Below, piece after piece: positions 17,101 through 20,325 of a DNA stretch of 45,504 nt; the stretch's first letter is position 1; every line of letters begins with the position of its first letter. Both the position numbers and the translations under genes were made by a program. Source of the DNA: Cirrosporium novae-zelandiae (lineage: Eukaryota); NCBI GenBank assembly GCA_026023565.1, contig JAPETS010000016.1, forward strand, positions 620,001-665,504, given 5' to 3'. The notes below the pieces were generated by a model. The model worked only from the letters and a program-made list of their open reading frames with translations, made no database searches and was not told the origin of the DNA.

Positions 17101-17945
17101 GTTTTATTAGTCAAGACCAACTAACAGTACCCGGAGTTCCAATAACAGTGCTGATTTCTGAGACTTCTGTTATCCTGTTTGAATTTTAACCGAACAGATA
17201 TAAAGCGGTATCAGTGGCGGATATGATAATGAGTAGTTAATCTTTGTGAAAAACGTTTCATGTTTTGGTCAGGTTCGTCTAAGTTATATGAATGTTATGA
17301 ATGTCAATCTATACTTAGAGCTATTTAAAGCATGCTCTCGTTATGGTCATTGCGGTTGTTGATTTAGGAGTGGGGGCGTCAAGAGAAGCTTATATTTATT
17401 TGTCGATTAAGAAATTAAAAAGGGGCGAGCGTAAAGAGATTAATTCCTAAATTGATGGAAAACCCGGGGCCGGCTTCGGAGGAACTTGCCCGAATTTGCA
17501 TAATGAGGCAAACAAGCATGTTGCGTGTCAAATGTTGTGATACCTTTCAACGACTTTGATATTTCATTGTTGTCAAAGGACAAAAAAGACTTTACGAATA
17601 CTTTACATATATAATCACGAATTGAACTCGGGTCCAGAATAAAGTCTGGGATTAATTACTCCTTTGGTACTTATAACCCGTCCAACCCGCAAGCCCCCGT
17701 TCGCCCCGCAAATCGCGCTCCTCTCTCCCGTTCTCTCCGATCTTACCGTGCCTCTACCCCTCCTCACAGTATCAACCCTGGCGCCCTCACGCCCCTCCTC
17801 CCGCCTGAGTTTGATCTCAAGGCATCTTGACCAAAGACCTGCATCTTTACAACTAAATACTCCCTACTCTGCAGAACGACTCGCCGCTCCTCAAGACGAT
17901 TTACCATACACTCCTCTCAGTGCATCTCCACAAGAAATAGCCAAG

Positions 17946-19255
17946 ATGGAACCAACCAAGTCAACACAGGATCCTCATCCTACATTACTCATACCCGGTC
18001 CAATTGAATTTGATGATTCTGTATTGAAGGCCATGAGCCATTTCTCGTATGAACCCACGTCGCCGAAGACAACCTATAATAAACATGTTGACGCTTTGTA
18101 TTCTAGTGAAAGCCATGTCGGCGCTCCATTCGTTTCGATATTTGGTGAAACCCTCACCATGCTACGAAAACTCTTCCAAACTACAGACCCCGCATCCCAG
18201 CCATTTGTTGTCTCTGGTAGCGGTACTCTTGGTTGGGATATGGTTGCTGCCAATCTAGTCGAACCTGGCGATGATGTTCTCGTTCTCCACACTGGGTACT
18301 TTGCCGATTCTTTCGCCGACTGCTTTGAGACATATGGTATCAAGCCGACGCAATTGAAAGCACCAATTGGGGACCGCCCTCAACTGCCAGAGATAGAACA
18401 GGCGTTGAAGGAGAAACAATACAGAATGATAACCGTGACCCATGTGGATACATCGACGGGTGTCCTCAGTGAACTTAAATCCCTCTCAGAACTCGTCCAC
18501 CGAGTCAGTCCAGAGACTCTGATTGTTGTCGATGGTGTTTGCAGTGTTGGTTGTGAAGAAATCTGCTTTGATGATTGGAATCTCGATGTCGTTCTCACTG
18601 CCAGCCAGAAAGCAATTGGCTGTCCAGCTGGGCTATCCATTATGATGTGCTCTGGGCGTGCAATCGAGCGCTTCAAGTCACGTCAGACACCGCCAGGCTC
18701 ATACTTTGCCTCATTCAAAAACTGGCTTCCAAGTAGAGACCCCATTCCATATTTTATGTCCCATTTTGCTAACACTCCCCAGTAATGCAAAATTACGAAG
18801 CCAAAAAGGCGTCCTACTTCGCAACTCCATCACCCCAACTAATCCGTGCTCTTCACATCTCTCTAACACAACTACTCTCTGTTCCTCTGGCCAATCGCTT
18901 TGCTACTCATCATGCTATCTCCCGCCGTATCAAGACCTTTATTACCTCTCTCGGCCTCAAGCAACTAGCCTCCGATCCAATCAACCAGGCAAACGGTATG
19001 ACCACAATATACTTGCCTGAAGGCATCACGGCGCCAATGCTATTACCGGCGCTGGCAAAGAAAGGCGTTATATTTGCGGGGGGGCTGCATAAGGAGATTG
19101 CAACTAAGTATGTGAGGCTTGGACATATGGGAGTCAGTGCCATGGAGGAGGGGAAGGGAAGAAGTGATATTGCGAAGGCATTAAAGGCCCTCGTAGCATC
19201 GCTAGGAGAAGCAGGCTATAGTATCCCCGAGGGGGTGGATGTGAAAAGTCTATGA
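17946..19255 (+). CDS. AGX1: Alanine--glyoxylate aminotransferase (class V PLP enzyme), 3 exons; possible upstream GUG start at 17748
   Basis: Contains LLIPGP, GSGTLGWD, THVDTSTG, VVDGVCS, TASQKAIGCPAG (PLP lysine), YFATPSPQL and RLGHMG. Introns are 18047-18106 and 18733-18782. First ATG at 17946 (AAGATGG). Confidence 0.93.
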
Positions 19256-19604: not shown

Positions 19605-20325
19605 TTATTCCTCCTTAACCATCCTCCTAAACTGACATCTTTCTATTCTCGTCTGGTCACTCCCATCTTCGCCCTTAATAATCTTGTATATGTAGAGGTT
19701 CAACACATCACCCTGAATATCCATTAGGCAGAATGAGGGTATACACTCCTCCTCTCCCCAACCTTCTCCCACAGCTCCTGTCGCACTCCCAGGGTTTACG
19801 AAAAATCTTCCCTCAAAATCGACACTCTCGACCTTATGTCCACCTCCCCAGATGAGCACATCCACATCCATCTGGCGCGCCATGATTAAGAGGCTGTCAA
19901 GGTCTCCGGGTGGTACAATAGAAGTGCCATGGGTAAGGCCGATTCGGAAGTTGCCATGCGTTACTATTTTGAAAGGTGGAAGGTTTGGGGCATCAACATC
20001 GTAGGGACCTTTTGTTATGTGCAGATCTGGGGCGAGGGAGCGTAGGAAGTCATAGGTTGGACGATCGGTGAGGTTCCCGGTACAAAGGATCTGATGGATC
20101 TTGTTGGGGGTAAGAAGGGTTTTAAACTGTGTAGACAACCAGGTTAGAAGGGGCTGGAGTTAAGAGGCGGAGGTGGTTGAAAATGTACTTTTGCTGGTAG
20201 GTCCTATATAAATTGTCAGCTTCGTCGCAACAGTAGCTAGGTAACCATATTTGTAACGAGATATCACTCACTGGGGCTCTATCGGGGATGAATAGATCCC
20301 CAAGGACTAGGACAAGTCTTGACAT
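19605..20325 (-). CDS. VPS29: Retromer subunit Vps29, 3 exons
   Basis: Exon 1 20325-20272 MSRLVLVLGDLFIPDRAP; 15-nt exon 2 20203-20189 DLPAK; exon 3 20126-19605 FKTLLTPNKIHQILCTGNL...RQMDVDVL...FFVNPGSATGA...PSFCLMDIQG. Confidence 0.96.

Follow-up and report, generated by a model that had tools for sequence, protein, structure and literature searches.

A conserved N-terminal extension with a putative peroxisomal signal, probably started at a CUG codon, in a fungal alanine-glyoxylate aminotransferase

Introduction

The locus described here raises the question whether a gene that is annotated from an ordinary AUG also specifies a second, longer protein that starts without one. It lies in a window of 45,504 nucleotides from Cirrosporium novae-zelandiae (GenBank assembly GCA_026023565.1, contig JAPETS010000016.1, forward strand, positions 620,001 to 665,504), and all coordinates below are those of this window. 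By homology, the gene is one for alanine-glyoxylate aminotransferase (AGT, also AGX1), and its annotated coding sequence begins at an ATG at 17946. A preliminary description of the window had noticed an open frame upstream of this ATG with an exact match to the consensus of the peroxisomal targeting signal type 2 (PTS2), and had proposed that a GTG at 17748 starts a peroxisomal isoform, while leaky scanning to the ATG yields a cytosolic one. The comparison with relatives presented below bears out a conserved, translated extension with a PTS2-type nonapeptide and no AUG to start it, but it points to a different start codon, i.e., a CTG at 17778. In our judgement, it is likely that AGT is produced both as a CUG-started long form carrying the PTS2 and, by leaky scanning, as an AUG-started short form.

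Through AGT, the glyoxylate cycle is connected with glycine synthesis and the redox balance of peroxisomes. Where in the cell the enzyme resides is relevant to primary hyperoxaluria in mammals and to the function of the appressorium in a plant pathogen.

The region upstream of the annotated ATG

The reading frame of AGT is open upstream of the ATG, although the number of sense codons, counted back to a TAA, is 101 (17643 to 17945) rather than the 94 given in the preliminary description. No ATG occurs in any frame over 411 nucleotides, from 17535 up to 17945; the last upstream ATGs are located at 17455, 17503, 17518, and 17532. The GTG at 17748 is in frame and has the context cttaccGTGcct, with an A at position -3 and a C at +4. 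The translation of the 66 codons that begin with it is as quoted earlier, and the nonapeptide RLSLISRHL is encoded at the position reported. Correct as well is the C-terminal tripeptide KSL, the spliced protein of 399 residues ending in VDVKSL.

Such features may arise by chance. Among 20,000 mononucleotide shuffles of 17643 to 17945, 5.3% contained 101 open codons, 14.9% contained 66 open codons, and 0.48% contained an in-frame RLx5HL motif. The composition of the region (39% C, 15% G) is relevant here, since stops are rare in it because it is C/T-rich. Taken singly, the features of the window are therefore mildly unusual, but not compelling. The observation goes beyond chance because it is conserved in relatives.

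Conservation of the extension as a coding sequence

Related proteins were collected with the read-through translation of 17748 to 18731 as the query, which gave 6592 proteins with E ≤ 0.001 among 8000 candidates. In 73 of the 120 best matches, the extension is present with a nonapeptide of the form R[LIV]x5[HQ][LFIVA], and in 24 this is exactly RLSLISRHL. Another 11 of these 120 have the extension with a motif that fails this filter; the motif is truncated by the gene model in seven cases, a variant nonapeptide still fitting R-L-x5-H-L is found in two, and the motif is absent or off-consensus in the other two. Judged by their source names, the matches are from fungi that we take to be Lecanoromycetes, Dothideomycetes, Leotiomycetes, Eurotiomycetes, Geoglossomycetes, and others. 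The first Met is located at most 13 residues from the motif in 28 of the 73 long public models. Such models have their ATG immediately 5′ of the motif, and an AUG-started long form is thus implicit in the annotation. In several public models from relatives, unrelated upstream exons are attached to the extension.

For the DNA comparison, metagenome contigs were scanned with two patterns of the catalytic side, LLIPGP[IV]E and FDD.VLQ.M. This yielded 222 matching stretches with 191 relatives, of which the best 80 were kept after ranking with a query that included the extension. A core was recognisable in 78 of these 80 loci (the exceptions being L053 and L080), and the nonapeptide is present in all 78. 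Together with the window, the metagenome loci represent 60 distinct sequences (59 from metagenomes), 58 of which have an assigned start codon; clustered at 88% nucleotide identity, these 58 form 35 lineages. The members of this set are biased to genes with the module.

The module has a constant order, i.e., (M/L/V)AP..., RLSLISRHL(D/E)QRP, NTP(F/Y)STER, DD(L/I).Y.P, a variable tail, and the internal Met, and the length of the extension ranges from 49 to 77 codons in the relatives. Within the NTPYSAER block, N27, T28, and P29 are invariant in the 35 lineages, and E33 and R34 are conserved in at least 90%. The window retains every invariant residue of the module.

Pairwise differences between the 35 lineages were calculated per codon position in ungapped anchored blocks. 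At positions 1/2/3, they amounted to 0.28/0.09/0.60 in the nine codons of the PTS2, to 0.18/0.15/0.59 in the eight codons of NTPFSxER, and to 0.11/0.02/0.58 in 14 codons of the catalytic core, and the corresponding values in the nine codons 5′ of the start were 0.63/0.67/0.65. None of the 2138 codons of the extensions is an in-frame stop, and the other frames contain 59 stops in 2103 codons each. This codon-position pattern and the absence of in-frame stops indicate, therefore, that the extension is translated and that there is a defined point at which the coding signal sets in. By this comparison, the extension is a conserved coding sequence across the Pezizomycotina relatives, under purifying selection. 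An alignment of relatives had been suggested as a check in the preliminary description; the frame and the nonapeptide turned out to be conserved, with wobble at third codon positions, but a conserved GTG is absent at the position of 17748. A comparison of frame-shifting indels upstream and downstream of the start was not informative in this respect, as gaps that are not a multiple of three dominated both sides, the distant pairwise alignments being too gappy.

No Pfam family matched the extension. Of 85 candidates in a word search with the extension only, 12 proteins reached E ≤ 0.01, and each of these 12 was of the AGT type. With an extension-only profile, a search of 1.84 billion representatives produced 130 matches with E ≤ 0.001, 75 of them at ≤ 1e-10 and mostly fragments of 70-380 residues. 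A second protein family was not apparent in these extension-only searches, the profile-match sequences themselves being uninspected.

The start codon of the extension

The start of the extension is a conserved NTG, which switches between CTG, GTG, and ATG. It is followed by an Ala codon (GCN) and is located 4-13 codons before the Arg of the nonapeptide. In the 60 distinct loci, the aligned codon is CTG in 42, ATG in 10, and GTG in 6, and it could not be assigned in two (L062 and L076); by lineage, the numbers are 25 for CTG, seven for ATG, and three for GTG. Where an ATG is found close 5′ of the PTS2 (10 of the 60 loci), it occupies the aligned start position in six cases and lies a few codons away in four.

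When the codon at the start position is a Leu codon, it is exclusively CTG. Elsewhere in the same extensions, CTG makes up 107 of the 471 Leu codons (23%), and the Leu at position 2 of the PTS2 uses all six codons (CTG 16, CTT 11, CTC 19, TTG 10, CTA 3, TTA 1). The probability of finding CTG in 25 out of 25 lineages by chance would be near 1e-16 if the lineages were independent, which they are not; synonymous sites in this alignment are, however, near saturation. Among close relatives that have the peptide APQSRLSLISRHL in common, the start position is ATG in L003, GTG in L005, L020, and L024, and CTG in L002. A maximum-likelihood tree of 33 lineages (without L003 and L078, whose match to exon 2 was short) requires at least six changes of start-codon type, four of which are forced by well-supported branches. 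CTG is present in every major clade of this tree.

Position -3 is A in 24 and G in four of the 28 non-ATG lineages; positions +4 and +5 are G and C, respectively, in all 28, and position +6 is T in 20. Such a context has been reported as optimal for Pezizomycotina (PMC5487733). Back to the upstream stop, 18 of these 28 lineages contain no in-frame ATG, and one runs off its contig. In the window, there is no in-frame AUG from the TAA at 17640 to 17945.

When the lineages are pooled, codon periodicity is present 3′ of the aligned NTG and absent 5′ of it. By alignment, the start is probably the CTG at 17778 and not the GTG at 17748. Since this CTG aligns with the conserved start, the extension most likely comprises 56 codons and has its PTS2 at residues 9-17. 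As near-cognate starts are read by the initiator tRNA, the long form would begin with M-APSRPSS-RLSLISRHL.

The start proposed in the preliminary description would give 66 extra residues from GUG 17748, the PTS2 would be located at residues 19-27, the start itself being a prediction in either case, and CUG 17778 would be a mere Leu codon. We regard this as improbable. The GTG is in frame and has an A at -3, the frame is open from 17643, and 6 of the 60 loci have GTG at the start position, but this is the position aligned with 17778. Moreover, the GTG at 17748 has a C at +4, and no near-cognate codon is conserved farther 5′ in the relatives, in particular no NTG at 10 codons 5′ of the conserved start, where periodicity is lacking as well (see the values above). 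In several lineages, in-frame stops are found 20-21 codons 5′ of the conserved start. Furthermore, the exclusive use of CTG among the Leu codons at the position of 17778 would be left unexplained if it were plain Leu. GUG 17748 could be used in addition to CUG 17778, but it may be a minor additional start at most, and its product would also bear the PTS2.

A hairpin located 3′ of the CUG, with a stem of 5 bp (GTCTC..GAGAC) in the PTS2 codons, was considered and rejected. At least four of its five pairs can be formed in 19 of the 35 lineages, yet without support from covariation, the numbers of synonymous-site pairs being 25 vs. 24.6 expected and 18 vs. 14.7 expected. Folding of 17778-17860 gave a z score of -1.96, and 8 of 200 shuffles were as good.

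Avoidance of ATG and leaky scanning

The preliminary description had proposed leaky scanning towards the downstream AUG, and a sequence signature of this process is found in the extensions of the relatives. In the 58 loci, only three in-frame and two out-of-frame ATGs are present between the two starts, where base composition predicts 62.6 out-of-frame ones, and a region of equal length 3′ of the internal ATG contains 158 ATGs. Reduced to the 35 lineages, the extensions contain two out-of-frame ATGs, vs. 38.3 expected from base composition and 20.3 ± 4.0 after shuffling of the codon order (minimum 8 in 500 shuffles); an equal length 3′ of the internal ATG has 96. The cleanest test is offered by NAY codons, since it concerns synonymous sites: an ATG is created when NAT is followed by G. 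Before G, the extensions use NAT once and NAC 53 times, and before other bases NAT 93 and NAC 132 times (Fisher p 5e-10). The NAY codons of exon 1 show the opposite trend before G (NAT 61, NAC 30). By these counts, selection acts against ATG triplets throughout the extension, whatever their frame, which matches the prediction of leaky scanning for the internal AUG. Their avoidance argues that a CUG-containing transcript is a real source of the short form.

The internal Met is located a few residues before the HPxLLIPGP block in 57 of the 58 loci analysed, and an A is present at -3 of its AUG in 31 of the 35 lineages. In C. novae-zelandiae, it lies three codons 5′ of the usual place (MEPTKSTQDPHP at 17946-17966 vs. 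the consensus MSSQxxHP). In a lichen-type group (L034, L042, L044, L045, and L048), the usual Met is absent and replaced by a Met approximately 12 residues upstream.

The proposed mechanism is then as follows. One mRNA, which would have to include the CUG, would give rise to two AGT proteins via alternative starts. Some of the scanning ribosomes would start at CUG 17778, aided by its optimal context (A at -3, G at +4), and would synthesize a long form of 455 residues, i.e., the 56-codon extension plus the spliced open reading frame (ORF) of 399 residues. The PTS2 in this form would be bound by Pex7, and AGT would enter the peroxisomes. Most ribosomes would bypass the CUG, cross 168 nucleotides that are free of AUG in all frames, and initiate at AUG 17946, thereby producing the form of 399 residues, which lacks the signal and is presumably cytosolic.

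A TATA-like sequence (17608-17614) is located upstream of both starts and downstream of the ATGs at 17455-17532. Its position would fit a leader with both starts and without an upstream AUG.

The nonapeptide as a putative PTS2

The PTS2 consensus has been quoted as (R/K)(L/V/I)x5(H/Q)(L/A) (PMC3798809; PMC7214817). In the 35 lineages, H16 and L17 of the nonapeptide are invariant, and R9, S11, I13, S14, and R15 are conserved in at least 90%. Positions 3 and 4 of the nonapeptide vary across lineages, the positions fixed in the consensus being held. Variants like RLNLFSRHL, RIDQISKHL, RLTAISSHL, and RLQLLSQHL are changed at x positions and keep the defining ones. With the starts proposed for the relatives, the motif would be found 5-13 residues from the N-terminus. 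The nonapeptide is, thus, a putative PTS2, from which peroxisomal import and dependence on Pex7 are predicted.

In a peroxisome proteome of Histoplasma, the protein G217B_3587 ("aminotransferase, putative", KAG5294259.1) was reported to be enriched in the wild type with a log2 fold change of 2.05; it was not peroxisome-enriched in the pex7 mutant (-0.695) or in the pex5 mutant, and the supplementary data note neither a PTS2 nor a type-1 signal for peroxisomal targeting (PTS1) in it (PMC13343957, supplementary). The Histoplasma AGT model P0123 has the extension with RLSLISRHL, and it might or might not be the same protein as G217B_3587.

Alternatively, the extension might be translated and serve as a mitochondrial presequence or as another N-terminal signal that is not a Pex7-dependent PTS2, in which case the long form would be mitochondrial; the chances of this appear low to us. 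The N-terminus is rich in Arg and Ser, with a single acidic residue (D18) among the first 20, and some public models add a basic leader to it (MLRR... or MLNSLS...RAV.RLR). Yeast Agx1 is found in mitochondrial proteomes. Mammalian AGT is reported to reside in mitochondria, in peroxisomes, or in both, with differences between species (PMC4585086; PMC3798809). However, the conservation of the nonapeptide is position-specific and tracks the PTS2, with R1, L2, [ILFV]5, [SA]6, H8, and L9 held and variation at 3 and 4. Presequences are usually conserved in character rather than in sequence. Moreover, AGT1 of Magnaporthe oryzae was reported to co-localise with a peroxisomal marker (PMC3338719).

A non-AUG start would be unneeded if an upstream exon with a conventional AUG were spliced into the extension, e.g., at the acceptor-like cctcctcacag that ends at 17769, but this is very improbable. 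A pyrimidine tract with CAG is indeed present 9 nucleotides 5′ of CTG 17778, ATGs are available at 17455-17532, and unrelated upstream exons are joined to the extension in several models of relatives, as mentioned above. Yet, a weak GTGTCA is, by eye, the sole donor downstream of ATG 17518 with a fitting phase, and the resulting intron of approximately 245 nucleotides would contain the TATA-like box. Neither a conserved acceptor nor an upstream exon was seen in the relatives, the N-termini of whose models are mutually discordant and in several cases cut into the PTS2, and the 10 loci with an ATG close 5′ of the PTS2 also argue against such an exon. Equally far-fetched is the idea that the region is only a 5′ untranslated region (UTR) in this species, with the open frame and the motif as an unused relic or a product of chance: 101 open codons occurred in 5.3% of the shuffles and the public annotation starts at 17946, but the invariant residues of the module are intact, the context of the CTG is optimal, ATGs are absent, and purifying selection acts on the module in 35 lineages, whereas a relic would decay.

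Conservation farther upstream

A longer translated leader was considered on the basis of upstream "Y-P" and "LCRRPL" conservation and rejected. The block concerned in the lichen-type loci is conserved at the nucleotide level and not coding, since in one group it does not share the frame of the extension, and coding periodicity 5′ of the NTG is absent in the pooled data of the 35 lineages. This block, GTCAT(C/T)CTGGC ... TTTGCCGA(A/G)GACCCCTC, is located 40-65 nucleotides 5′ of the CTG in L019, L022, L026, L027, L030, L033, L037, L047, L004, and L034. In two other groups, L005/L020/L003 and L063-L074, a CCAAT box is conserved approximately 85-100 nucleotides upstream. Both the block and the CCAAT box may be promoter or leader elements, which would place the transcription start shortly 5′ of the NTG.

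Several public models begin with a basic leader, e.g., MLRR.YPAI (Leotiomycetes) or MLNSLS..RAV.RL (Histoplasma, Blastomyces). An in-frame ATG far upstream or a leader was seen in L032, L056, L040, L051, L059, L071, L019, L033, and L068, and in the proteins P0014, P0027, P0123, and P0126. Some lineages possibly produce a third, longer form, which might be mitochondrial, although codon periodicity is lacking in this region in the pooled data.

Weight of the proposed mechanism

Several points weigh against the proposed pair of isoforms. The 120 best protein matches include 36 public models that begin at the internal Met, shortly before HPxLLIPGP. The DNA set cannot show how frequent extension-free AGTs are, because an extension-containing query was used in the ranking, and the lineages are related, so that counts are not fully independent. 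An in-frame ATG is present 40-163 codons farther upstream in 9 of the 28 non-ATG lineages, and some lineages are conserved 5′ of the CTG, e.g., with an in-frame Y-P 6-9 codons upstream. A structure aiding initiation is supported neither by covariation nor by folding. Amphipathic N-termini rich in Arg and Ser can also function as mitochondrial presequences, and the peroxisomal location of M. oryzae AGT1 has been attributed to a C-terminal fragment fused to GFP (residues 340-385, with QKA at the end), not to an N-terminal signal (PMC3338719). For C. novae-zelandiae, finally, the case for the two forms is one of sequence comparison throughout.

A broader view can be advanced tentatively, and we consider it rather doubtful. 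Across the Pezizomycotina, AGT might be peroxisomal mainly via the PTS2 module, with the start codon acting as an evolutionary rheostat, i.e., switches between CUG, GUG, and AUG (at least four to six in 33 lineages) would reset the split between peroxisome and cytosol. The ban on ATG would maintain the cytosolic form, and in some lineages an upstream AUG may add a mitochondrial presequence, which would bring the number of destinations to three. If true, this rheostat would change the view of the peroxisomal targeting of the virulence-linked AGT1 in plant pathogens.

The AGT gene and its surroundings

The features of the locus are listed in Table 1. Exon 2 matches the Pfam family Aminotran_5 (PF00266) with 61.3 bits (cut-off 21.5, E 1.1e-16), the best solved structure for the gene product is yeast AGX1 (alanine-glyoxylate aminotransferase 1; 2bkw, E 7.2e-57), and homologues are named alanine--glyoxylate transaminase in the databases. 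The protein contains the motif SQKAIG, which is conserved in the homologues and the Lys of which we take to be the Schiff-base residue that binds pyridoxal phosphate. The identification of the gene as AGT/AGX1 follows from this homology.

Table 1. Features at the AGT locus (window coordinates).
Feature	Position	Strand	Basis or remark
TATATAA, possible TATA box, approximately 165 nucleotides 5′ of CTG 17778	17608..17614	+	function inferred only
In-frame TAA closing the frame upstream	17640..17642	+	sequence reading
In-frame GTG of the preliminary description, ACC GTG C	17748..17750	+	without conserved counterpart in relatives
Proposed near-cognate start CTG, ACC CTG GCG (A at -3, G at +4)	17778..17780	+	homologous position in 60 loci
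Predicted 56-codon N-terminal extension: M-APSRPSS, putative PTS2, NTPYSAER / DDLPYTP part, variable tail	17778..17945	+	conserved in relatives
PTS2-type nonapeptide RLSLISRHL	17802..17828	+	fits (R/K)(L/V/I)x5(H/Q)(L/A)
Conserved block NTPYSAER (consensus NTP[F/Y]S[T]ER)	17856..17879	+	conservation in 35 lineages
Second conserved block DD(L/I).Y.P	17895..17915	+	3′ of the PTS2, in the extension
Annotated/internal AUG, start of the short isoform with the catalytic domain only	17946..17948	+	public model P0001 begins here
Exon 1, annotated coding sequence	17946..18046	+	read from sequence; homologue alignment
Intron 1, 60 nucleotides, GTATGA..TCTAG	18047..18106	+	in frame, without stop
Exon 2, class-V aminotransferase core	18107..18732	+	Pfam PF00266 match
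Intron 2, 50 nucleotides, GTAGAG..CCCAG	18733..18782	+	splice junction restores homologue sequence NWLPIMQNYEAKK
Exon 3 with TGA stop, C-terminus ...VDVKSL	18783..19255	+	sequence reading

Both introns have GT..AG ends. An identical public protein, P0001, is a model of 419 residues from a C. novae-zelandiae assembly (Xylobotryomycetes), which starts at ATG 17946. It carries 20 extra residues (YEPTSPKTTYNKHVDALYSS), because intron 1 is in frame, free of stops, and retained in the model; these residues are absent from the other 19 homologues fetched. The C-termini are variable in the homologue alignment and have no PTS1-type tripeptide in common.

An ORF of 184 residues on the minus strand (19605-20159) faces the 3′ end of AGT in convergent orientation. 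It matches the calcineurin-like phosphoesterase family PF12850 with 42.9 bits and, by eye, presumably resembles the retromer subunit Vps29.

Significance and comparison with known systems

If the proposed mechanism is true, the public AGT gene models of filamentous fungi contain a systematic error at the 5′ end: some begin at the internal Met, and others have invented upstream exons by which the signal is sometimes cut. Inventories of peroxisomal proteins built on annotated N-termini would then miss the long form of AGT. The comparative signature is unusually clean, combining the exclusive use of CTG, GTG, or ATG at one position with the avoidance of ATG at synonymous sites, and the same signature could serve in genome searches for further hidden dual-targeted proteins. 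In the open PMC and bioRxiv literature, no description of a PTS2 or of a non-AUG start for fungal AGT was found; an earlier mention elsewhere is possible.

Mammalian AGXT belongs to the same enzyme family, and, as proposed here for fungal AGT, its location depends on whether an N-terminal extension is present, with alternative start sites underlying the difference. In fungal AGT, unlike in mammalian AGXT, the N-terminal extension carries a putative PTS2, and the proposed start is non-AUG. The peroxisomal signal of the mammalian enzyme is described as C-terminal and of the PTS1 type, and its N-terminal extension as mitochondrial (PMC2120593; PMC4585086).

M. oryzae AGT1 is likewise a Pezizomycotina AGT, of the same class, and was reported to be peroxisomal (Bhadauria et al., 2012; PMC3338719). 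In that study, only the C-terminal fragment was localised; fusion of GFP to the full-length protein yielded no signal, and an N-terminal signal was not considered (PMC3338719).

Conserved near-cognate extensions have been described for cpc-1 of Neurospora crassa and for other Pezizomycotina genes (Ivanov et al., 2017; PMC5487733). Like the AGT extension, they feature an A at -3 and a G at +4 and show purifying selection in the frame of the main ORF. Unlike AGT, cpc-1 encodes a transcription factor, and its extension is reported to bypass control by upstream ORFs, an organelle signal not being involved (PMC5487733). The terms aminotransferase, glyoxylate, peroxisomes, and PTS2 each have 0 occurrences in that paper.

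The Gnd1 protein of Candida albicans is, as proposed here for AGT, a cytosolic enzyme with a minor isoform that has an N-terminal PTS2 (Strijbis et al., 2012, cited in PMC3798809). However, this isoform is reported to result from alternative splicing and not from the choice of a start codon (PMC3798809).

The closest parallel is the 6-phosphogluconate dehydrogenase Pgd1 of Ustilago maydis, a precedent to which the preliminary description had rightly pointed. In this case, a tandem AGG AUU, used at about 2%, serves as the start for a PTS2 encoded in the 5′ UTR (Kremp et al., 2020; PMC7214817). As in AGT, the PTS2 is encoded 5′ of the annotated AUG, without a preceding in-frame AUG, and the motif is conserved in related fungi. 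A minor peroxisomal and a major cytosolic form are reported to be made from one pgd1 mRNA, and the same outcome is proposed for AGT. The two cases differ in the enzyme and in the fungal phylum, and the PTS2 of Pgd1 begins 39 nucleotides 5′ of the AUG (PMC7214817). In contrast, the predicted start of AGT is a single CUG (GUG or AUG elsewhere) in an optimal context, followed by an extension of 49-77 codons with more conserved blocks, and is known from sequence. Aminotransferases are not mentioned in the Pgd1 paper (PMC7214817). By analogy, the mechanism proposed for AGT would be a known one with Pgd1 as its one direct precedent, and AGT, if the proposal is true, would join Pgd1 as the second enzyme family with a PTS2 that is started at a non-AUG codon.

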